The notes below the pieces were generated by a model. The model had not been told where the DNA came from. It did no database searches and worked only from the letters and a program-made list of their open reading frames with translations. From an uncultured Syntrophaceae bacterium (GTDB lineage Bacteria; Desulfobacterota; Syntrophia; Syntrophales; UBA5619): 64,000 nt of DNA. Positions 21-51,335 of the stretch are shown here, piece by piece (within the stretch, counting starts at the first letter, position 1; the number at the start of each line of letters is the position of its first letter). The stretch is taken from assembly GCA_964637025.1 (NCBI GenBank), contig CAZWTL010000007.1, positions 5,112 to 69,111 of the forward strand. The letters are read 5' to 3'. A program made the translations under genes and the position numbers.

Positions 21-566
21 TCATCCTTTGACTTCCTTCGCCATTTCTTCCCTTTCCTGCTGGAGAGGGACGTTTGTATTGTCCTTCTGGAAAAAACGCC
101 TCCGCGGAATCCCTTTCCCGGCCAATATCCCGGAGCAGACCACTTCGCCATCGGGCCGCGCCATGGTGACGGCAACCTTGAGCTGGTTTCCGCGAAAATA
201 AACCTTTTTGCCTCTAATGAAGACCCGCTCGCCGGGGTGAACCATTCCGGTGAACTCCACGCTGTCCGCCAGGGTAAAGAGGGTAACGGTATCCGCCATG
301 TCCTGCGTCCGCTTTTCATCGAGTGCGGCCAGGTACAGGCCAAAGGCCACGACGCCGGTTTGGGCCATGGTCTCCACGAGGATCACCCCCGGTGTGATCG
401 GCAGACCCGGGAAATGGCCTTCATAGAAATACTCGTCCTCGCGAAACCGATAGGCGCCCACGATATGCTCCCCGTCCATCTCCAGGATTTCGTCGACGAA
501 GCGGAAAGGGGATTGCTGGGGAACATGATCGAGGATCCGGCGGCAAGTATCGCGGTCAGCCTCCAT
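21..566 (-). CDS. hotdog-fold 3-hydroxyacyl-ACP dehydratase (FabZ-like)
   Basis: 181-aa ORF with FabZ-type motif [24 protein letters not shown]. Its start overlaps the stop of the upstream fabG-like gene by 11 nt. Confidence 0.8.
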
Positions 567-1284
567 AAAGGCCTCCGTTCACATGAACGACGGAACCGGT
601 CATATAGGATCCTGCGGTCGCCAAAAAAACCACCACCTCGGCGACCTCCTCCGGCCGTCCCATTCGCCCCAGAGGCACGCGGCCCAGGACGTCCGTCCGG
701 ACCTCATCAGGAAGGCGCGCCGTCATTCCGGTGTCAATGAAACCGGGGGCCACGGAATTGATCAGGATGTTTCTGCCGGCCAATTCCAGGCAGAGGGATT
801 TCGTCATCGCGTCCAGGGCCGCCTTTTCCATGGCGTACGGGATCTGGCCGCCGTTGCCGGTATGGCCGACGACGCTTGAGATGTTGATGATCCGGCCGCT
901 GCCGGTGCGGAGCATGAACTGGCGCAGGATCCGCTTTGTCAGCAGCCAGCCCCCCCTGAGTGTGGAACGTTGGGCGTCGAACTGCTCGATTCGCATCCGC
1001 TGCATGTCCAGATCGAGGGAAAATCCCGCATTGTTGACCAGAACGTCGAGGCGGTCCGTTGTCCCCTTGAGCTGTTCCATCATCGCCTCCACCTGATCGA
1101 TGTCCGCCAGGTCCGCTGAAAGCAGGAACCCGTTGCCGATCTCGGCGAGCAATGCTTCGGCAGCCGCGGCGCTCGAACGGTAATGGATGCCCACACGAAA
1201 GCCACTGGCCGCCAGCATGCGCACGCAGGCCGCCCCGATTCCCGTGCCGCCTCCGGTTACGACCGCCACTTTGTCCTGGTTCAT
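556..1284 (-). CDS. fabG: 3-oxoacyl-ACP reductase (SDR family)
   Basis: 242 aa. Has the TGGGTGIG Rossmann motif, a YAMEK (YxxxK) catalytic motif and a C-terminal VNGG. Confidence 0.85.
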   Translation of the reverse strand: MNQDKVAVVTGGGTGIGAACVRMLAASGFRVGIHYRSSAAAAEALLAEIGNGFLLSADLADIDQVEAMMEQLKGTTDRLDVLVNNAGFSLDLDMQRMRIEQFDAQRSTLRGGWLLTKRILRQFMLRTGSGRIINISSVVGHTGNGGQIPYAMEKAALDAMTKSLCLELAGRNILINSVAPGFIDTGMTARLPDEVRTDVLGRVPLGRMGRPEEVAEVVVFLATAGSYMTGSVVHVNGGLYGG

Positions 1285-1346: not shown

Positions 1347-1937
1347 TTACGGATCCATCCGTCCTCCGGTGCTGTTGGGCGAACGGCGCGGATAGTCCGG
1401 ATAGGCGATGCCCTGGAAAAGGCCTGTCCGGGCGCCACGGACCTCCGCGATCTCCTGTCCATCCACCAGGATGCAGCCATCGCCGATAACGATGCTCGCC
1501 TTCGATTTCTGAAGATGTGTCAAGCGCCGTACGTTGACTTCATAACGCACGAGGCGGTTGAACGGCCTGACCTGACCGCTGAAATTCACCTCGCCGCAAC
1601 CCAGGGCCCGTCCCGAACCGATTCCACCCTGCCAAACGCAGTAGAAACCCAGGAGCTGCCAGACGGCGTCCAGGGACAGACAACCGGGTTGGACCGGATC
1701 GGACGGCATGTGGCACTGGAAATACCAGGCATCGATTCGGATCTCCTGCTCCGCGACGATCCTGCCCTGATGGCCGTCAGCGCTGATCTCAACGATTCGG
1801 TCCAGCATCAGGAAGGGGGGGGCCGGCAGACGGGCCGTGAAGCCTTCGGGGGGATCGTCCACCAGCGTCCCGTAGGAAAAGGCGAGCAGTTCTTCAAGTC
1901 CGAAGTGCGAGGCACTCTTGAATTCGCTGTAATTCAT
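1347..1937 (-). CDS. fabA: 3-hydroxyacyl-ACP dehydratase/isomerase, FabA-like
   Basis: 196 aa. LPAPPFLMLDRIV and WYFQCHMPSDPVQPGCLSLDAVWQLLGFY closely match the FabA active-site region (His and Asp retained). ATGA overlap with the upstream KASIII stop. Confidence 0.8.
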   Translation of the reverse strand: MNYSEFKSASHFGLEELLAFSYGTLVDDPPEGFTARLPAPPFLMLDRIVEISADGHQGRIVAEQEIRIDAWYFQCHMPSDPVQPGCLSLDAVWQLLGFYCVWQGGIGSGRALGCGEVNFSGQVRPFNRLVRYEVNVRRLTHLQKSKASIVIGDGCILVDGQEIAEVRGARTGLFQGIAYPDYPRRSPNSTGGRMDP

Positions 1938-2923
1938 CCGTTCTTCTCCACAGCCAACAGCAGGTTGGCCCAGGTAAGCCCTGCGCCGACCAGACAGATT
2001 CCCACATGCATGCCAGGCTGAAGATCATCCCAATGTGCGCTCAACACGGAGGCTGCCCCGGAGCTTCCCGTATTCCCGAAGCGATCCACGTTGAACCAGT
2101 GATGCCCCTCCGGGAGCTCGGCCCGATCGCAAACGGTCCGTAGCGCTCCCAGATTCGCCTGATGGCCGATAAATCGAAATCCCTGCCCGTTCGTCCGCAT
2201 CGATTTGATGCCCTGCAGCGACTCCGTCATTCGCCGGATGGCGAATCCCTGGACGGCGTGTCCGTCCTGGCGAAAATGGGCGCCGTAGGCGACCGTCACC
2301 CTCCTCCATTCTGCGGCGTTGGTTCCGCAGTGGGATTCGACGAAGGCCAGTCGCGTCGGCACCGCCGCGGATAGAACAGCGGCGGTGCTTGCATCGCCGA
2401 ATAGAACGGCCGCCGATCGGTCGCTGAAGTCGACCGCGCGGGTGATCGCCTCCTGCTGAACGACGAGTACGAAGGGCGGTAACCTGTCCAACGCCATCCG
2501 GTTCAGAAGATCGATCTGGACCCCGAAGGTCGTGCAGGCGGAATTGACGTCCAGGCATGGGGCTTCGATTCCCAACTGCGCTGCCACGACGGCCGACTCC
2601 GCGGGCGTCGTGTAGGATGGGACGCTGCTTCCCGAGATGACCAGGCCGATGTCCGAGGGGCTCAGGCCCGCCCGGTCCATGGCCATCCGCGCCGCCGCTA
2701 CGCTCATCTCGGCATTGCTGTAGAGGCTCGCCTCATGGGCAGCCCGAGGCTCACGGTTTCTCGTTTTCCGGATGTAGTCCAGGGGGAGCACGGTCCGGCG
2801 TTCGCGGATTCCCACCCGTTCCATGATCCACTCCTCGTCCGTTCCGATCTCCAATTCCGCCAGGAATCGGTTCGTGATGACGTTTTCCGGATGAAAATGG
2901 CCGATGCCGTGAAGGTAAATCAT
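1934..2923 (-). CDS. 3-oxoacyl-ACP synthase III (KASIII/FabH-like)
   Basis: 329 aa. Cys-His-Asn triad contexts NSACTTFG, IGHQANLG and FGNTGSSG. Its start shares 1 nt with the ACAD stop. Confidence 0.8.
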   Translation of the reverse strand: MIYLHGIGHFHPENVITNRFLAELEIGTDEEWIMERVGIRERRTVLPLDYIRKTRNREPRAAHEASLYSNAEMSVAAARMAMDRAGLSPSDIGLVISGSSVPSYTTPAESAVVAAQLGIEAPCLDVNSACTTFGVQIDLLNRMALDRLPPFVLVVQQEAITRAVDFSDRSAAVLFGDASTAAVLSAAVPTRLAFVESHCGTNAAEWRRVTVAYGAHFRQDGHAVQGFAIRRMTESLQGIKSMRTNGQGFRFIGHQANLGALRTVCDRAELPEGHHWFNVDRFGNTGSSGAASVLSAHWDDLQPGMHVGICLVGAGLTWANLLLAVEKNG

Positions 2924-4122
2924 CAGATCAGCCCCCGACCGATGATCATGTTCTGCACCTCCCGGACCCCTTCATAAATGTCGATGATCTGGGCGTCGCG
3001 GATCAGCTTCGAAATCTCATATTCCGAGATGAACCCGTATCCGCCGTGGAGGTGCAATCCCTCGGTCGTGCAGAAGACGGCGGCCTCCGCGGCAAGGTTC
3101 TTCGCGAGCGATGCGTACAATCCGCGATCAGGGGCTCCCGTCTGGGCCAGAAAGGCCGCCTTCATCAGGGCCATCTCGGCCTGTTCCGTCTTCTTCCACA
3201 TGGCCACGAGGGTCTCGCGGGCGACCGGCATGTCGCTGATTCGCTGTCCGAACTGGCGGCGCTCCCGTGTATAGGACAGGGTGATATCCAGCGCCCGCCG
3301 CGCAAGACCGATACCGATGGCGGCCACCATCGGCCTTGCATAATCGAGGACATCGGTCAGATACCTAAAACCGAGTCTGCGGTCGCCGATGATCTGATCG
3401 TCATCGATCTCGACGTCCTCGAATGAAACGGTCGCCGTGTTGGAGAGGCGCTGTCCCAATTTGTCCTCAGGCTTGCCCGTCGCGATTCGACCCCCTGAGG
3501 GCAGGGTGATCTCTCGGCAGGCGCGGGAGGCGGTTTCTGCAGCACCCGGCTCCACGGCCGGAACGGGAACGACAACGCAGGCGATGAAAGGCGAAGCGGA
3601 TTTGCCCACCTTGCAGAATACGGTGAACTGTGATGCATAAGAGGCGTTCGTGATGAAACACTTCTCCCCGTTCAAACGATATTTCCCATCCTTTTCCTTG
3701 CGAATGGCGGTTGTCATGACGGAGTTGTCGGAACCCGCTCCGGGTTCCGTCAGACAGAAAGAGGCCAGCAGGGGCCGCTCCACGAACGGGGACAGGAAGG
3801 ATTGCTGCTGACTCTCGGTGCCGTGCATGGCGATCACCGCATTGGCCAAGTCGTTGCACATGGCCGATGTCGCGATGCCGCTGTCTCCATACGCCAGTTC
3901 ACGGATAATCAGGGCGGTTGAAATCAGGTCGATACGATAGCCCTTGACCGCCTCCGGGATGGAAAGATTCAGAATGCCGAGGTCCCATGCCTTCCGGATG
4001 ATGTCGAAGGGGAATGCGTGATCCCTTTCAAGGGCCATGATGCGGGGTGCGATTTCGCGGCCCACGAAACGGCGGACGGTTTCAAGGTATTGGTTCTGCT
4101 CTTCGCTGAGACTGAAGTCCAT
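2923..4122 (-). CDS. acyl-CoA dehydrogenase family protein
   Basis: ORF 2923..4224 trimmed to the ATG at 4122 (MDFSLSEEQ...), with GGAAAGG 8 nt upstream. ACAD fold with C-terminal IYEGVREVQ motif. Confidence 0.85.
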   Translation of the reverse strand: MDFSLSEEQNQYLETVRRFVGREIAPRIMALERDHAFPFDIIRKAWDLGILNLSIPEAVKGYRIDLISTALIIRELAYGDSGIATSAMCNDLANAVIAMHGTESQQQSFLSPFVERPLLASFCLTEPGAGSDNSVMTTAIRKEKDGKYRLNGEKCFITNASYASQFTVFCKVGKSASPFIACVVVPVPAVEPGAAETASRACREITLPSGGRIATGKPEDKLGQRLSNTATVSFEDVEIDDDQIIGDRRLGFRYLTDVLDYARPMVAAIGIGLARRALDITLSYTRERRQFGQRISDMPVARETLVAMWKKTEQAEMALMKAAFLAQTGAPDRGLYASLAKNLAAEAAVFCTTEGLHLHGGYGFISEYEISKLIRDAQIIDIYEGVREVQNMIIGRGLI

Positions 4123-4206
4123 CGGGAATGCCTTTCCAATCATCCTTCCGCACGCAGATGCGGATCCGGGGAATGACTTGTCAAATGGTTTCTTCAAGCA
4201 AGAAAC

Positions 4207-4221
4207 GCATGAAACGTGCCA
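4207..4221 (-). promoter_or_regulatory. sigma-54 (-24/-12) promoter candidate for the ACAD-KASIII-fabA-fabG-fabZ operon
   Basis: The minus strand reads TGGCACGTTTCATGC. The -24 element TGGCACG is perfect, the GG-N10-GC spacing is exact, and the -12 element is ATGC versus TTGC. It sits about 85 nt upstream of the ACAD ATG. Confidence 0.55.
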
Positions 4222-4348
4222 CAATGACCATTGGAGAGGGACGTTTACAAAAAAATGAACAGTGGACTGACGTTGGCTTCGATACGCACCCGTGGCGAGT
4301 CGCCGTTCGGCCCCGTGAGATGGCGTCCGGATGCGTAAGAGCGGGTTG

Positions 4349-4372
4349 GGGTGCGTAGTACGTTACGCACCC
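4349..4372. promoter_or_regulatory. perfect 9-bp inverted repeat GGGTGCGTA-N6-TACGCACCC (candidate enhancer/UAS)
   Basis: Read directly from the sequence. It lies about 130-150 bp upstream of the sigma-54 promoter at 4221, in the divergent region between the ACAD and HK genes. An extra TGCGTAA half-site occurs at 4332. Confidence 0.4.
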
Positions 4373-4407
4373 GGCCTGCCTTGACTTCACAGGGATGATT
4401 ACGATAT

Positions 4408-5904
4408 GTGCAATGCATGGAAATTTTCATGCTGACGGCGGTAGGAATAACCCTGTCCGTCGCATTGATCATCAACAAGAAGAGGGAGCCGCTGCACATC
4501 TCTTTCGCCGCGCTCTGTCTGGCGGTCGCCTTTTACGAGGGGGGCGTCTTCTTCAACCGGATGTTCCATACCGGGGGCTGGCTTCTTGTCGAACAACTGG
4601 GTCTTCTCGCCATTCCCCCCCTGATGATCAAATTCAGCCGCGATTTCTGCGAGGAGCAGACCCTGATCCGGAAACGCGATCTCGGCACCGCGCTGGTGTG
4701 CAGCGCAGGATTCGCAGCGGTTCTTTTCACGGCGGCCTCGGAATGGAGACACCTCGGGTTCTTCATGCATCTCTATGTGAAAGGTGTTTTTCTCCTGTGC
4801 TACGTTTCGTTGGTGGTCTATGCGAAGAAAAGGGCTGCCGGAGCGGAAAAGAAGCGACTTGTCTATCTCATCATTGCGGCCACCGCCGCCATCGCGAGCT
4901 ACTCCATTCCACCCCTGTTCAACCTGGTCGTTGCCGGGATGATCTATTTCATCATGATCGTGATCACCCACACCCATCTGACGGAGCTCCACGATCTCAT
5001 GGCGCGCGCCTTGGTGACGCTGGTCGTGTCCCTCTTCACGACCGTCGTATTTTACCTGGTCATCGGCTTTTTCGGAAAGGGGGACACCCCCCCGTTCACA
5101 CTCGTGCTGATGGTCTCCTTCATCATTGTCATCGCCATCGGACCCTTCCAGGTCATCCTGAAGAGGCTCCTGACCACGCTTTATCCTGAGATCAAGGACG
5201 TCTTCACTTCGCCCTATGATCTGGATGAAAAACTGGAGCGGGAGAAGGCGCTTCTGCTGGAAAAGATGGCTCCCGTTCTCGCGCACGAGATCCGGAATCC
5301 CCTCGGTTCGATCAAGGGGGCGGCGCAGGTGCTCCTGTCGGCGACGCAGGACAAGGATCAGCGCAGGCTTCTGGACGTGATTACCGAGGAGGCGAACCGT
5401 CTGAACCGGGTCGTTATGCAATTTCTCGATTATGCCCGCCCCTATCCGTCCGATTTCCGCCCGCGATCCGTCAATGCGGTCATTGAAAAGGCATTGGCCA
5501 TCGTCGAGGCCGACAGCATTTCAAGCCGCGTACATGTCCAGTTGGAGTTCCACCCCCATCTGCCTCCGGTGCTGATGGATCAGGAGCAGATCCACCAGGT
5601 CATCCTGAACATGGCCCTCAACGCCATCGAGGCGATGCAGGACGGCGGCACGCTGACTTTCCGGACATCCCGGATCGAGAGCGACGCCGGCGATGCCGTG
5701 GGAATATCCATCCGGGATACGGGTTCGGGGATCCAGCGCGATGTGCTGAAACAGATCTTTACCCCCTTTTTCACGACCAAGGAACGGGGGGTGGGGCTCG
5801 GCCTGGCGGTGTGCCAGCGGATTATCCGGAACCACGGCGGACGTATCCGCGTGAAATCCATCCCCGGACGGGGGACGATCTTCTATATTCGTCTTCCGGT
5901 TTGA
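4408..5904 (+). CDS. sensor histidine kinase with polytopic membrane N-terminal domain
   Basis: 498 aa. About 240 aa of hydrophobic multi-TM region is followed by the H-box LAHEIRNPLGS and HATPase_c motifs (DTGSGI, GLGLAV). Confidence 0.85.
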   Translation: MQCMEIFMLTAVGITLSVALIINKKREPLHISFAALCLAVAFYEGGVFFNRMFHTGGWLLVEQLGLLAIPPLMIKFSRDFCEEQTLIRKRDLGTALVCSAGFAAVLFTAASEWRHLGFFMHLYVKGVFLLCYVSLVVYAKKRAAGAEKKRLVYLIIAATAAIASYSIPPLFNLVVAGMIYFIMIVITHTHLTELHDLMARALVTLVVSLFTTVVFYLVIGFFGKGDTPPFTLVLMVSFIIVIAIGPFQVILKRLLTTLYPEIKDVFTSPYDLDEKLEREKALLLEKMAPVLAHEIRNPLGSIKGAAQVLLSATQDKDQRRLLDVITEEANRLNRVVMQFLDYARPYPSDFRPRSVNAVIEKALAIVEADSISSRVHVQLEFHPHLPPVLMDQEQIHQVILNMALNAIEAMQDGGTLTFRTSRIESDAGDAVGISIRDTGSGIQRDVLKQIFTPFFTTKERGVGLGLAVCQRIIRNHGGRIRVKSIPGRGTIFYIRLPV

Positions 5905-5963: not shown

Positions 5964-7349
5964 ATGGAAATCACGAGGGAGCTGAGGGACAAGATCGGCG
6001 ACGGTTCGAAAAAAATGAAGATCCTTGTCGTGGATGACGAACTGAACATGCGGCTGGTCCTCAAGGCCATGTTGAAACAGGAGGGGTACGAAGTGGCCAC
6101 GGCTTCGGACGGCCTGGAGGCCCTGAAAATCATCCATGAGGAGAGGATCGCCGCGGTTGCGGCCGATCTCAAGATGCCGCGGCTCGACGGCATGGGACTT
6201 CTCGAACAGGTCATGAAGGACGATCCCTCCCTCCCTGTTATCATCCTGACTGCACACGGCACCGTGGCGAACGCCGTGGATGCCCTGAAAAAGGGCGCAT
6301 TCGATTATCTCACCAAACCCTTCGAACAGGATGAGCTCAAGGCGGTCATCCTGAAGGCGGTCAAGACGCGGCAATTCGGCGATCGGGAGATATCGATCGT
6401 AACAGGTGAGGGGGACGCCGGCGGAATCGTCGGAAAGAGCAGCCGCATGGCGGAGATCCATGACATCGTCCGGAAGGTCGCGCCCGCGGGGACCACGGTG
6501 CTCATCACGGGCGAGACCGGAACGGGAAAGGAACTGATCGCCCGTGCGATTCACCGCCAGAGTTCCAGAAAGGAGCACCCTTTCATCAAGATCAACTGCG
6601 CGGCCATTGCCGAAAATCTGGTGGAGAGCGAACTCTTCGGATACGAGAAAGGGGCTTTTACCGGCGCCGTCACCGCAAAGCCCGGAAAGTTCGAACTGGC
6701 CCACCGGGGAACCCTTTTCCTGGACGAGGTCGGAGAAATTCCGCGGGAGATTCAGGCCAAGCTCCTTCAAGCGCTGCAGGATCAGAGCTTCGAACGCGTC
6801 GGCGGCCTGAAGACGATATCGGTGGACGTCCGTCTGGTGGCGGCGACGAACCGGAATCTCCTGCAGGAGGTCCGGGAGGGAAAGTTCCGCGAGGACCTCT
6901 TCTACCGCCTGAACGTATTCCCGATAGAGGTTCCGCCGCTCCGTGAGCGGCCCGAGGACGTCCTGCCGCTGACCTCCCACTTCATCGGAAAATTCAACCG
7001 GAAACTGGGCCGGCAGATTGAGGGCATCGATCCGGAGGTCGGGGAGTGTCTCCTGGCCTACCCCTGGCCCGGAAACATCCGCGAGCTTGAGCATCTGGTC
7101 GAACGGATGATCCTGATGGAAGAGGGATCCCTGCTGACGATGGCGTCAGTGCCGAACGAGATCGCCCAGACCGCGCATGAGCCCAGGCTCAGGATCCACA
7201 TGGAGGAAACGGAACGACAGATCATCGCCCGCTGTCTCGATGAGTGCGACGGCAATGTCACCCGGACCGCGGAACGTCTGGGACTGAGCCGTAAAGGCCT
7301 TCAACTCAAGATGATCAAGCACCGCCTCCGCAAACGGGATGAGGAATGA
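5964..7349 (+). CDS. sigma-54-dependent response regulator (NtrC family: REC-AAA+-Fis HTH)
   Basis: ORF 5811..7349 trimmed to the ATG at 5964, preceded by GGAGGGAGA (alternative start 6015). REC (KILVVDDE), Walker [15 protein letters not shown] motif and a C-terminal HTH. Confidence 0.9.
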
Positions 7350-37802: not shown

Positions 37803-37813
37803 CCATGATTAAA

Positions 37814-37828
37814 GCACCATTCGTGCCA
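37814..37828 (-). promoter_or_regulatory. sigma-54 (-24/-12) promoter candidate
   Basis: The minus strand reads TGGCACGAATGGTGC. TGGCACG is perfect, the GG-N10-GC spacing is exact, and the -12 element is GTGC versus TTGC. Confidence 0.5.
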
Positions 37829-46775: not shown

Positions 46776-47744
46776 CTATTTCAATACCCCGACTTCCCTG
46801 AAGTATTTCGCCGCCCCGGCATGCAGAGGCAGCGGACTGTTCACCGCGTTTTGAGGTGTCAATTGGGCCGCGATCGGATGCACGTTTTTCAGGGCCCACT
46901 GTCCTTCCGTCACATTGGTGAATATCGCCTTTGTGATTTTGTAGGCGACATCTTCCCCCATCTTCCGGTTGGCGATCATCACATTGGAGTCGCCCAGGCA
47001 GAGCACGTCATGGTCGACCTTGGCATAGGTCTTCCCCGGGATGATGATCTTGACGTAATAGGGATGTTTCTTGAGGATCTGATCCAGCAGCCTGGGCTCA
47101 ATGGGCACAAGCACGATGTCTCGCGTGGCGGCCAGGTCCATCACCGCGGAGCCCGGAAAGGCGAAGTTGAAAAATGTCGCATCCACGACCCCGTCTTTGA
47201 TCGCCTGAACCGATTCGGTCTGGGAAAGGTTCGCGATCTTCAGGTCCTTCTCGAGATTGAACCCCGCTTCTTCGAGAATGATCTTGGACATCGTCGAACA
47301 GCCGCTTCCCGGGACGTCGATTGAAACCCGCTTCCCCTTGAGATCGGAAATCTTCTTGATCCCGCTCTGAGCGGTTGTTACAAGATGCTGGGGAGCGGGA
47401 TACATCTGGAAAAGGGAGACGAGGTCGTACTTTTTCTCGAAAGGCGCCTTCCCCTGCGCGGCGTTGTAGGCGACGCTCCCCATGACCATTCCCATGTCCG
47501 AATCGCCATTGCCTACGAGCCGGCTGTTCTCGACAGAGGCTCCCGTGGATTCGGAGGCGCAACGGAATCCGGCCACGGTTTTCTGAATCACGACGGCCAT
47601 GCCGCCTCCGAGCGGATAGTAGGCCCCGCCGGGACTTCCCGAGGCAAGTGTCAGAAAGATCCTGTCCGCCGCGGCAGCCTGAACACCGGCTCCCAGGCAT
47701 ACCGCCAGACATGATGCCCATACGGTGATCCATGTACGCTTCAT
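46776..47744 (-). CDS. TAXI-family TRAP transporter solute receptor
   Basis: Trimmed to the ATG at 47744 (AAGGAGG upstream). Signal peptide and the LASGSPGGAYYPLGGGMA motif typical of TAXI receptors. Confidence 0.85.
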   Translation of the reverse strand: MKRTWITVWASCLAVCLGAGVQAAAADRIFLTLASGSPGGAYYPLGGGMAVVIQKTVAGFRCASESTGASVENSRLVGNGDSDMGMVMGSVAYNAAQGKAPFEKKYDLVSLFQMYPAPQHLVTTAQSGIKKISDLKGKRVSIDVPGSGCSTMSKIILEEAGFNLEKDLKIANLSQTESVQAIKDGVVDATFFNFAFPGSAVMDLAATRDIVLVPIEPRLLDQILKKHPYYVKIIIPGKTYAKVDHDVLCLGDSNVMIANRKMGEDVAYKITKAIFTNVTEGQWALKNVHPIAAQLTPQNAVNSPLPLHAGAAKYFREVGVLK

Positions 47745-47971
47745 AGCCTTGTCCTCCTTTTCTGTGGTTTGTGATTCTTGGGTTGTTGTCCAAAATCGAG
47801 CCCGGGATCGCCTTCCGGATGAAGTTCCCCGCGATGGCCGGTTCCCGGCGGCCGTATCACGCCGGATTTCCCGAGGGCATACCCTCGGAGTCCGTCCCGC
47901 ATGCTTTTCCGTGCCCACATGAGGCCCTCATGATACCCATCGCTGGAGGCCTCCGCCTTTCCCGGCTGCGT

Positions 47972-48811
47972 TCAGGCGGATGCTTGCCTGGCAGGCAGGC
48001 TGAGGATTCGTCGCGTATCGGCCGGCGTAGCGATGTCGTTGCCGTATTCCCGCGTGAGACGCACGATGCGTTCCACCAGTTCGGCGTTGGTCTTCGCCGG
48101 AACGCCCCGGCTCAGATAGATGTTGTCTTCCATGCCTACCCGGATATGGCCCCCCAGGATGAGCGCCATGGTTGCCATGGGGAGATAACCGCGGCCAATC
48201 CCGATGACGGACCAGGTGGCACCGGGCGGCAGCAACTCATATTGGTGGAGCAGGGATTTCGGGGTTGCCGGTGCCCCCGATGGGGTTCCCAAAACGAACT
48301 GGATGTGCAGGGGGTCTTCCAGTCTGCCTTCTTCACGCATCCTGAGGGCAGTGACCAGCATGCCCGCGTCGAAGATTTCGATTTCCGGCTTGACGCCCGC
48401 CTGCTTCATACGTCCGGCCGCCTCGTCGAGAAATGAAGGCGGGTTGGCGAAAACATGGCCTCCAAGGTTGATGGATCCTGCGTCGAAGGATGCCAGTTCG
48501 GGCCGCAGAACAAGGGGGGATAGGCGTTCGTCGACGGGAAGATTTCTCCCCGGGATGCCGCTCGTCGTCAGGCACAGCAAGAGATCCGTCTGCGCCCTGA
48601 GCGGTTCCACGACACGGCGGAACAGTTCCAGGTCCTGGCTTCCCAAACCTGTTTCCGGGTCCCTGACGTGGATATGAACGATCGAGGCCCCGGCCCGCCA
48701 GCATTCCATGGCCGATACCACGATTTCATCCGTCGTGATGGGAATATAGGGTGCGATGTCTCGGGTCATGCGGCTCCCCGTGATGGCCGCCGTGATGATC
48801 GTCTTTTCCAT
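47972..48811 (-). CDS. beta-keto acid cleavage enzyme (BKACE/DUF849; 3-keto-5-aminohexanoate cleavage enzyme family)
   Basis: Trimmed to the ATG at 48811 (MEKTIITAAITG). SIVHIHVRDPETG and GGHIRVGMEDN motifs. Confidence 0.85.
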   Translation of the reverse strand: MEKTIITAAITGSRMTRDIAPYIPITTDEIVVSAMECWRAGASIVHIHVRDPETGLGSQDLELFRRVVEPLRAQTDLLLCLTTSGIPGRNLPVDERLSPLVLRPELASFDAGSINLGGHVFANPPSFLDEAAGRMKQAGVKPEIEIFDAGMLVTALRMREEGRLEDPLHIQFVLGTPSGAPATPKSLLHQYELLPPGATWSVIGIGRGYLPMATMALILGGHIRVGMEDNIYLSRGVPAKTNAELVERIVRLTREYGNDIATPADTRRILSLPARQASA

Positions 48812-48851
48812 ACGTTGCTCCTGGCCTCCCAGAGTGATCCAATCCAGAATT

Positions 48852-50201
48852 TCAGAATCCCATTTCCTTCTCCACCTCCCCGATGGAACGATCCAGGATC
48901 TCCACAAGTTGGTCGATTTCATCCTCGGTGATGATGAAGGGAGGCGCCAGAAGGATATGATCTCCTCGGATCCCGTCCGCACCCCCTCCGCCCGGGTAGC
49001 AGATCAGGCCGCGTTCAAAGGCACGCTTGCCGATACGGGTGTTGATCTTTTCTTTGGCTTCGAACGGCTGTTTTGATGGTCTGTCTCTGACGAATTCAAT
49101 CCCCGCAAATAGGCCCAAGCCGCGCGTATCCCCGACAATCGGATGATTGCGAAGGCCCTCCAGACGCCTCAACAGTTGCACCCCCATGACAGCGGAGCGG
49201 TTCACGAGATCATGCCGGGTGATGTAATCCAGAACCGCGCCGGCGATGGCGCAGGAGAGGGGATTCTGGCTGTAGGTGTGGCCGTGTACGAAGGCGCCGG
49301 ACCCCTTCTTGATCGTGTCATGGACGGTTCCCGTGGTGACGACGCATCCGATGGGCGTATAGCCGCTGGCAAGCCCTTTGGCGCAGACGATCATATCGGG
49401 AACCGTATCCCAGTGGTTGATCCCCAGAGGCTTTCCTGTCCGGCCGATCCCCGTCATGACCTCATCGACGATGAGAAGCACGTCGTAGCGGTCGCAGATC
49501 TGCCGGATGCGATGAAAGTATCCCGGGGGCGGCACGAGGGCGCCCGCGGTCGCTCCGACCACCGGCTCCGCAACAAAAGCCGAGACGGAATCGGGGCCCT
49601 CGTACAGGATGGTTTGTTCGAGATCGTCTGCGCATTCGAGGTTGCAGTCGTTGGGCGTTTGTCCGAAAGGACAGCGGTAGCAGTAAGCGGGAGCGATATG
49701 AGGGGTATGTTGCATGAGGGGCAGGTAGTTCTTGCGTCTTCCCGTGTGACCGCTGAGGGCGAGTGCTCCAAGGGTGTTTCCGTGGTAGCTGGTCCAACGC
49801 GAGATGACCTTGTACTTCGAGGGAATCCCGCGTTCCACCTGGTATTGCCGGGCCAGCTTCACGGCCGTTTCCACCGCTTCCGACCCGCCGGAGAGGAAAT
49901 ATACGCGCGCAAGGCCTGGAGGACACAGGGCAACGAGCCGGTCGGCAAGGGCAATGGCTGCGGCGCTGGTGAACTGGGACCCATGGGCGAAGGCGAGCAT
50001 GCCGGCCTGCTTCAGCATGGCATCTCGGATCTCGGGAACGCCGTGTCCGATGGACACCACCGCCGCCCCGCCCGAACCGTCGAGGTAGCTTTTCCCGTCG
50101 GCATCATAGACGAAGACCCCTTCGCCGCGGACGGCGGTGGGATAGAACTTGGCGGGATTCCGATAAAAAACGTGATCCGTATTCTGGGGTTGTCTTTCCA
50201 T
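48852..50201 (-). CDS. class III (omega-type) PLP-dependent aminotransferase
   Basis: 449 aa. GSEAVETAVKLAR, LLIVDEVMTGIGRTG and AKGLASGY (PLP lysine context). Confidence 0.85.
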   Translation of the reverse strand: MERQPQNTDHVFYRNPAKFYPTAVRGEGVFVYDADGKSYLDGSGGAAVVSIGHGVPEIRDAMLKQAGMLAFAHGSQFTSAAAIALADRLVALCPPGLARVYFLSGGSEAVETAVKLARQYQVERGIPSKYKVISRWTSYHGNTLGALALSGHTGRRKNYLPLMQHTPHIAPAYCYRCPFGQTPNDCNLECADDLEQTILYEGPDSVSAFVAEPVVGATAGALVPPPGYFHRIRQICDRYDVLLIVDEVMTGIGRTGKPLGINHWDTVPDMIVCAKGLASGYTPIGCVVTTGTVHDTIKKGSGAFVHGHTYSQNPLSCAIAGAVLDYITRHDLVNRSAVMGVQLLRRLEGLRNHPIVGDTRGLGLFAGIEFVRDRPSKQPFEAKEKINTRIGKRAFERGLICYPGGGGADGIRGDHILLAPPFIITEDEIDQLVEILDRSIGEVEKEMGF

Positions 50202-50444
50202 GAGATAACCTCCTTCATTGGACTTCCCGGGATCTGTTACCCTGTTTCCGGTGCGGATGCTTCGATGATGATTTGCTTCCGAACCCGTGCTTCCAAGCGA
50301 GGGGGTTGGTCTCGGGCGCCATGCACCCTGATTTCATGAAACCGTCACCCCGTGCAGGCGGCACGGGCGGTGCGGTGAGAAGCGAAGCGGCAGGGCAGCA
50401 TGTCCGCCCTGTCGTTTACCGATGGATGGGCTCCTCCTGCCGCG

Positions 50445-51335
50445 CTAAGACCTCCTTTCATGGTTTGGGCTACGGCGATCCGTACGGGGATTGATGTAGA
50501 TGGCCTTTCGATGCCAGAGTTCTTCCCTTTCCCGGAGGGCCTTCATGGTTTTGTCTTTATCCTGAACGCTCAATGCGGTCAGGAGGGCGTTGACCAGGCT
50601 CATGGCTGATGTAAAGGATTCGATGAAGGAGTCGAGTTTGGAGTGGACGGGAAGGACCCAGTCCGCGTTTCGGGCGAGGGGAGAGATGCAGGAATCGGTG
50701 ATGGCGCCTACCCTTGCTCCCTGTTCTTTGGCGTATTCCAGTATTTCGACGGTCAGTCGGGTATATCGGGGAAGGCTGATCCCGATAACGAGGTCGTTGC
50801 AGTCCATGCCGTGCAGCGTATTCCATATGTCTCCATAGCCGGGAATGACCGGCGACGCGGCCTTCCCCAGGAATCGGAGGTAGAGTGCCAGAACGAGTGC
50901 CGGGGCATGGGCGCCTCGGAGCCCCACGACGAAGATGTTCTTGGCCCGTCTCATATCCTGTACGGCCTGATCAAAGGTGGCCAGGGGGATGTGACGGAGC
51001 GTTTCGGTGAGATTCCGGATATCCTCTTGCATGATCTTTTCCAGGATGTCTCCCCCTATGCGGATGTTGCGGACTGTTCTTTTGAGCCGCGTGACTGTGG
51101 TGAGTTGATCCTGGAGATGGGTGCGGAGCATTTGCTGCAGTTCGGGATAACCGTCGAATCCGAGAGCCTGAGCAAGCCGCACAATGGTCGCCTCGCTGAC
51201 GCCCGCCTTCTTGGCCAGTTTGGATCCCGTCAGGAAGATCGCCTCTTCATAATGGTCCATGAGGTATTGGGCGACGCGTTTCTGCGCCTCCGTCATCCTG
51301 GACCGGCTGTTGAAGAGTAGGGTTGAAAGCGGCAT
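50445..51335 (-). CDS. MurR/RpiR-family transcriptional regulator (HTH plus SIS)
   Basis: 296 aa. HTH_6 segment (EAQKRVAQYLMDH...) followed by a SIS domain. Confidence 0.85.
   Translation of the reverse strand: MPLSTLLFNSRSRMTEAQKRVAQYLMDHYEEAIFLTGSKLAKKAGVSEATIVRLAQALGFDGYPELQQMLRTHLQDQLTTVTRLKRTVRNIRIGGDILEKIMQEDIRNLTETLRHIPLATFDQAVQDMRRAKNIFVVGLRGAHAPALVLALYLRFLGKAASPVIPGYGDIWNTLHGMDCNDLVIGISLPRYTRLTVEILEYAKEQGARVGAITDSCISPLARNADWVLPVHSKLDSFIESFTSAMSLVNALLTALSVQDKDKTMKALREREELWHRKAIYINPRTDRRSPNHERRS

Follow-up and report, generated by a model that had tools for sequence, protein, structure and literature searches.

In the genome of an uncultured Syntrophaceae bacterium (G000), the genes of a histidine kinase and an NtrC-type response regulator diverge from an operon of fatty acid synthase (FAS) genes, and this arrangement raises the question of whether the two-component pair controls the operon through the DNA that separates them. 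A first-pass annotation of the window, the 64,000-nucleotide stretch of DNA analyzed here, had proposed that a sigma-54 promoter and an upstream site provide such a link. In silico, the proposal is upheld: promoter and site are conserved and linked to the operon, both are absent where the kinase is absent, and the site co-varies with the recognition helix of the regulator. The reading favored here is that a conserved sigma-54 promoter and palindrome would tie the adjacent kinase and regulator to the FAS operon across Syntrophales, and from comparison of orthologous loci its probability is put at roughly three in four. The relatives compared are Syntrophales, namely metagenome-assembled genomes of Syntrophaceae and Smithellaceae and the genome of Syntrophus buswellii DM-2. 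Positions 4123-4416 of the window are interpreted as a divergent control region, and the features of the locus are collected in Table 1.

Table 1. Coordinates of Genes and Proposed Control Elements at the Divergent Locus of G000
Feature	Position	Strand	Basis or remark
FabZ-like hotdog protein	21-566	-	Pfam/NCBIfam
FabG-type SDR	556-1284	-	Pfam/NCBIfam
FabA	1347-1937	-	Pfam/NCBIfam
KASIII	1934-2923	-	Pfam/NCBIfam
Acyl-CoA dehydrogenase (ACAD) family protein, first operon gene in G000	2923..4122	-	Pfam
Predicted transcription start, ~12 nt 3′ of the -12 C, leader of ~73 nt	4193..4197	-	Inferred from usual sigma-54 geometry
Sigma-54 (-24/-12) promoter TGGCACGTTTCATGCG of the lipid operon	4206..4221	-	Sequence, orthologous promoters, rpoN
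A/T tract between activator site and promoter, possible intrinsic bend	4249..4255		Bending role inferred
Third exact copy of TACGCACCC	4283..4291	+	G000-specific, not conserved in alignment A2
Putative auxiliary half-site GGATGCGTAA; 21 bp, or two helical turns, separate it from the left palindrome arm	4329..4338		Conserved
Putative upstream activator palindrome, core TGCGTA-N6-TACGCA	4353..4370 (G000 extension 4349..4372)		Genome-unique, conserved
Sigma-70-like promoter of the kinase/regulator genes, TTGACT-N18-TATGTG, ends 6 nt before kinase ATG	4381..4410	+	Conservation in alignment A2
Sensor histidine kinase, ~250 aa polytopic membrane domain joined directly to HisKA and HATPase_c	4417..5904	+	Pfam, alignment A3, hydropathy
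NtrC-family response regulator: REC, AAA+ sigma-54 activator with GAFTGA, Fis-type HTH	6015..7349 (alternative start 5964)	+	Pfam

Gene Content of the Divergent Locus

The operon of G000 comprises nine genes in the order ACAD-KASIII-FabA-FabG-FabZ-KAS-ACP-PlsC-PPTase. The window starts 5.1 kb into the contig, and the operon extends past this start on the same strand with the genes for KAS I/II, ACP, a PlsC-type acyltransferase, and a PPTase. FabA matches the equivalog model NF003509 with 196.8 bits, against a cutoff of 124. The ACAD gene occupies the place expected for an enoyl reductase, and orthologs with 64%–88% identity are found at the same position. Most relatives have a ten-gene operon, since a FabD-like gene (VVFPGQGSQ) is inserted between the promoter and the other genes (e.g., L034, L037, and L038) as the first of the operon; this gene is missing in G000 and its closest relatives (G012, G013, G035, and G019). 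The only FabD homolog of G000 lies on contig C15 (35% identity), and further KASIII-like genes are found elsewhere in the genome. At ~47580-50930, contig C15 carries a reduced cluster, yceD-rpmF-fabD-acpP-fabF, apparently without plsX, fabH, and fabG, in which acpP and rpmF were assigned from gap sizes only.

From its gene content, the operon, [FabD]-ACAD-KASIII-FabA-FabG-FabZ-KAS-ACP-PlsC-PPTase, is predicted to encode a near-complete type II FAS. It had previously been described as fatty-acid-modifying; the connection to fatty acids stands, but the operon is better described as a near-complete synthase that holds the only strong FabA/FabZ-family genes. Of the three genes in the G000 genome that match PF07977 (FabA/FabZ), two belong to the operon and the remaining one reaches just 29 bits. 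Strong PF07977 genes are likewise limited to the operon in G042, G059, and G048, whose genomes are closed or near-closed. Since these genes are confined to it, the operon probably supplies the main dehydratase steps of the cell, including the FabA isomerase reaction for anaerobic unsaturated fatty acids, and does not serve a side pathway. This would lend greater physiological weight to any switch that acts on the operon. An accessory role in FAS was also considered for the operon and is weakened, as no other strong PF07977 gene is present in G000 or in the closed genomes.

The kinase had been described as having a sensor region composed wholly of polytopic membrane segments, and this is borne out. 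Residues 1–250 contain 8–9 hydrophobic segments, and the loops between them span ~17 aa at most. Neither a HAMP nor a PAS domain was found before the H-box by Pfam, alignment, or hydropathy. The H, N, and G boxes are invariant in alignment A3, and full-length orthologs were found in Syntrophales only. A match to HisKA_7TM (PF16927), a functionally uncharacterized family, reached 28.4 bits against a gathering cutoff of 28.6 and, being marginal, was not adopted. The assignment of the neighboring gene as an NtrC-type regulator with GAFTGA is likewise supported: its product matches PF00072, PF00158 (243 bits), and PF02954 (HTH_8), and the GAFTGA motif is present in the translation. Its best NCBIfam match is AtoC (NF008469), with 472 bits against a cutoff of 714, and it was not regarded as an AtoC ortholog. 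Sigma-54 itself is encoded by an rpoN gene on contig C34 (493-aa frame; PF04552, 223 bits), and the genome also encodes 16 bona fide sigma-54 activators.

A Conserved Sigma-54 Promoter Upstream of the Operon

On the minus strand, the sequence at 4221..4207 is TGGCACGTTTCATGC, in which GG and GC lie exactly 10 nt apart in the canonical GG-N10-GC register, in agreement with the first-pass annotation in both sequence and spacing. Relative to TGGCACG-N4-TTGCW, two mismatches are observed, and the -12 element is ATGC, not TTGC. The promoter had been placed about 85 nt upstream of the ACAD start, and 84 nt separate the -12 C from the ATG, although this codon lies at 4122..4120 and not at 4123. In a single genome alone, the match is within chance expectation: sequences with no more than two mismatches occur 4 times in the window, versus ~8 expected, and 135 times genome-wide. 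The best match to the sigma-54 consensus in the window, TGGCACGAATGGTGCT with one mismatch, is found at 37813-37828 on the minus strand.

Comparison of orthologous loci gives a different picture. A GG-N10-GC motif with the consensus TGGCAYG-N4-NTGCT is present upstream of the first operon gene in ~35 Syntrophales genomes, at a distance of 39–104 nt in most of them. Counting only promoters with no more than two mismatches, 27 genomes have one, whereas the background rate is 0.009 per 420-nt strand (background rates for the motif range from 0.009 to 0.066 per region). The conservation at orthologous positions places both the promoter and the palindrome described below far above chance. The register, the strand, the position, and the conservation of the motif, and the presence of rpoN, all agree with a sigma-54 promoter.

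An Upstream Palindrome at a Preferred Distance from the Promoter

Both upstream elements that had been annotated are present, a perfect inverted repeat, GGGTGCGTA-N6-TACGCACCC, at 4349..4372 and a TGCGTAA at 4332..4338. The repeat occurs once in the 3.07 Mb genome. Its right arm, TACGCACCC, occurs eight times in the genome, and three of these copies lie within 90 bp at this locus, including one that the first-pass annotation did not contain (Table 1). The repeat is centered 141 bp from the -24 GG, on its upstream side, inside the 130–150 bp interval given previously. Among orthologs, this distance clusters at 138–143 bp and at 120–125 bp, with single cases at 131 and 152 bp, and the ~10- and ~20-bp steps hint at a retained helical phase. 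Two loci from one genus, L135 (G023) and L136 (G016), have the palindrome 440–620 bp upstream of the sigma-54 promoter instead of ~140 bp, which suggests either that sequence has been inserted between the two elements or that a second site has gone unrecognized.

The conserved parts of the region were delimited in alignment A2, which contains 25 intergenic regions from the window's own family and has a mean column identity of only 33%. Three blocks stand out. The first, GCATCAAnCnTGCCAC, is the reverse of TGGCAYGnTTGATGC; the second is GGTGCGTAA-N13-GGTGCGAAGC-N3-CTACGCAGC; and the third, CTTGACTTCCCG..GATTACGGTATG, lies directly before the kinase ATG and is the most conserved of all. The auxiliary half-site is conserved in this family as GGTGCGTAA and is also present in G058. 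Outside the family, the palindrome, either exact or as a variant with one or two mismatches, is still found upstream of the GG-N10-GC promoter. The perfect 9-bp arms were discarded as the functional element: the outer GGG/CCC are specific to G000 and not conserved, which reduces the functional core to TGCGWA-N6-TWCGCA. Thus, of the repeat as first annotated, the palindrome is retained but its extension is not. As judged from these alignments, the conserved element is the 18-bp core and, in the window's own family, the TGCGTAA half-site 21 bp away. By sequence, the palindrome has what is expected of an enhancer (upstream activator sequence): it is a conserved inverted repeat, lies in the range of ~80–200 bp upstream of the promoter, and co-occurs with the regulator.

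The exact pattern TGCGWA-N6-TWCGCA was searched in 61 Syntrophales genomes. It occurs at 40 sites in 36 genomes, compared with 16 sites for a reversed control pattern, and is essentially a single-copy element in each genome. By coordinate matching, 28 of the 40 sites fall at the operon locus, and the remaining 12 are at background level (16 for the control). Because the matches elsewhere do not exceed background, the regulon appears to consist of the lipid operon alone. An identical 18-mer that fits the pattern, TGCGAAGCCGTTTTCGCA, is found away from the locus in two genomes (G001:C198:25906 and G034:C82:6481) and may be conserved coding sequence or a second site. Between enhancer and promoter, a scan of 23 orthologs with WATCAANNNNTTR for IHF binding revealed no conserved site, only a recurrent T/A tract; a run comparable to that of G000 lies 30–55 bp upstream of the -24 element in many orthologs.

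Linkage of the Regulator Pair to the Operon

Promoter and palindrome recur upstream of the orthologous operons across Syntrophales, a comparison that had been suggested together with the original proposal. Divergence of the kinase/regulator pair from the operon was seen in 16 of 20 genomes, with at least seven families represented, and Syntrophus buswellii DM-2 is one example; S. aciditrophicus likewise has this architecture. In five genomes (G023, G016, G021, G020, and G008), the pair and the operon are on different contigs. In all five, the palindrome and the sigma-54 promoter are upstream of the operon, and the kinase gene retains only its TTGAC...TACGNTATG promoter, without the palindrome. 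Three genomes with 92%–97% completeness (G038, G046, and G056) possess the operon, but the kinase ortholog, the sigma-54 promoter, and the palindrome are all missing; in G056, a TTGACA-type promoter takes the place of the sigma-54 promoter. Seven further genomes have neither kinase nor operon. The kinase ortholog is present in G052, G053, and G049, but no promoter was found there within three mismatches. At the G046 locus (L140), tandem heptamer/octamer repeats of the CATAAGT(CG) type lie ~100–200 nt upstream of the FabD-like gene, and this array occupies the place of the sigma-54 promoter and enhancer of other genomes.

Nearly all regulators compared share one 12-residue sequence in the recognition helix. 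In G060 and G039, which belong to one family, the palindrome is changed to TGTGWA-N6-TAYACA and the recognition helix reads LSR(K/R)GLHLKLAK. This co-variation lends support to binding of the palindrome by the regulator, a weak support since it reflects one evolutionary event.

These comparisons bear on three other explanations of the intergenic region. The palindrome ends 8 bp upstream of the -35 hexamer of the kinase promoter (TTGACT, 4381..4386), and the blocks for the two elements are adjacent in alignment A2, such that it could act mainly as an autoregulatory operator of the kinase and regulator genes and not as an enhancer of the lipid operon. Where kinase and operon are unlinked, however, the palindrome stays with the operon, indicating that it is an element of the operon and that autoregulation is not its primary function. 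Its spacing is also constant relative to the sigma-54 promoter, even where genes lie between it and the kinase (G041 and G042). A mainly autoregulatory function is considered improbable, and a dual role may exist where the genes are linked. The sigma-54 promoter could, in another scenario, be real but served by a different activator or transcription factor bound to the palindrome, with the adjacent two-component system regulating something else. Two further kinase/NtrC pairs are encoded in the same window, and with 16 sigma-54 activators in the genome the case for binding by the adjacent regulator rests on adjacency, co-occurrence, and the one co-variation event. The adjacency of kinase and regulator is nevertheless retained across at least seven families. 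The presence of the kinase tracks that of promoter and palindrome, down to the three genomes that lack all three; the recognition helix changes together with the palindrome; and an element with about one copy per genome implies a regulon of one operon. Assignment of the site to another activator is therefore judged unlikely.

The -24/-12 match might, finally, be fortuitous, with the operon transcribed by sigma-70 and the conserved blocks maintained by other constraints. The chance-level frequency of such matches in a single genome and the departure of the -12 element from the consensus are compatible with this explanation. It is difficult to reconcile with the retention of GG-N10-GC in families whose intergenic DNA is otherwise unalignable, given the low background, or with its absence from genomes that lack the kinase/regulator pair. 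A consensus scan of 4050-4480 also revealed no sigma-70 promoter for the operon, and a fortuitous match is regarded as very unlikely.

Proposed Mechanism of Activation

With control of the operon by its adjacent two-component pair as the preferred reading, the elements can be arranged into a scheme. The polytopic kinase would phosphorylate the adjacent NtrC-type response regulator, for which the palindrome would serve as the enhancer. The phosphorylated regulator is expected to bind the palindrome and the half-site 21 bp away, to oligomerize there, and to contact the sigma-54 holoenzyme by looping of the intervening DNA, opening the promoter through ATP hydrolysis. The recurrent T/A tract may assist the looping. 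Transcription of the operon would begin near 4195. The kinase and regulator genes would themselves be transcribed constitutively from their own sigma-70-like promoter.

The least secure step of the scheme concerns the signal. A sensor domain outside the membrane is missing from the kinase, which makes a signal perceived inside the membrane most likely, and lipid synthesis would then respond to the state of the membrane or its lipids. An intramembrane or lipid cue is a guess, and the most economical one for an input domain that is purely membrane embedded. A more specific version, in which the 8–9-TM kinase reads membrane state (thickness, fluidity, acyl composition, or a lipid intermediate) and feeds back through its NtrC-type partner and sigma-54 on the only FabA/FabZ-containing FAS operon of the cell, is put forward tentatively and may well not hold. 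If true, it would amount to an order-wide, DesK-like lipid homeostat acting on both the FabA unsaturated pathway and bulk fatty acid synthesis in obligately syntrophic anaerobes.

Comparison with Known Regulatory Systems

Two-component control of a sigma-54 promoter has its archetype in NtrB/NtrC acting on glnAp2 in enteric bacteria. Common to NtrC and the present system are a regulator with REC, AAA+ (GAFTGA), and Fis-type HTH domains, a -24/-12 promoter, and adjacent kinase and regulator genes. As at glnAp2, inverted repeats that would act as enhancer sites are located 100–150 bp upstream and are accompanied by an auxiliary site facing the same side of the helix. In contrast to NtrB, a soluble PAS kinase under PII control, the kinase is an integral membrane protein with 8–9 transmembrane segments, and the system also differs from NtrC in its motif (TGCGWA-N6-TWCGCA), in its target, an FAS operon, and in a regulon that is apparently a single operon.

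AtoS/AtoC of E. coli, which activates atoDAEB in a sigma-54-dependent manner, is the closest named regulator by score, below the equivalog cutoff. The two systems would share a two-component pair, activation of one adjacent lipid-related operon, and an inverted-repeat enhancer. AtoS, however, has a periplasmic loop and a PAS domain and senses acetoacetate, and the Ato target is the catabolism of short-chain fatty acids, whereas that of the present system is synthesis.

DesK/DesR of Bacillus subtilis, which senses membrane thickness and fluidity and controls the desaturase gene des, offers no more than a functional analogy. The two systems have in common a purely transmembrane input and output genes that set unsaturated acyl chains (here FabA and KAS). 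DesK has five transmembrane segments and a HisKA_3 domain, and its partner DesR, of the NarL type, regulates a sigma-70 promoter, whereas HisKA (PF00512), an NtrC-type partner, and sigma-54 are found here, and the sensor region has no homology to that of DesK. The kinase was not classed as a DesK-type thermosensor, as its HisKA (PF00512) domain and NtrC-type partner differ from the HisKA_3 domain and NarL/LuxR-type partner of that group.

A precedent for sigma-54 control that feeds membrane fatty acid synthesis is provided by BkdR and SigL of Bacillus subtilis, which act on the sigma-54-dependent bkd operon for branched-chain primers. BkdR works without a kinase, as a one-component activator that contains a PAS domain, and it targets a catabolic dehydrogenase complex instead of the enzymes of FAS. 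To our knowledge, the known regulators of bacterial FAS (FadR, FabR, FapR, FabT, DesT, and FasR) are one-component proteins, either repressors or activators, which act at sigma-70 promoters and sense acyl-CoA, acyl-ACP, or malonyl-CoA. Neither the system nor its motif is described in the literature searched, including the Desulfovibrio sigma-54 regulome paper (PMC4641369).

The regulatory architecture is textbook; its target, an FAS operon, is unusual. Across the whole order, control of the FabA/FabZ-containing FAS operon appears to lie with sigma-54 and a two-component system whose sensor is confined to the membrane, and transcription of the operon would consequently be strictly dependent on a signal. 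If true, energy-limited syntrophs would be using a new regulatory logic to control the synthesis of their membrane lipids. Studies of cultured Syntrophus would also gain a defined cis element with its regulator pair, and a large, uncharacterized polytopic kinase input domain would gain a possible function.

The Putative Kinase Promoter and Translation Start

The sigma-70-like promoter assigned to the kinase and regulator genes (Table 1) is retained where the kinase is unlinked from the operon and the palindrome is missing, but TTGACT-N18-TATGTG is not recovered in a strict sigma-70 consensus scan. The start of the kinase gene, ATGGAA, is invariant, and in G000 and its close relatives it is not preceded by a Shine-Dalgarno sequence. 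This absence, together with a promoter that ends 6 nt before the ATG, suggests that the kinase mRNA is leaderless in these genomes. Relatives with an insertion of 50–70 nt before the kinase start have a ribosome-binding site of the GGAAAGG or AGGAAGG type.
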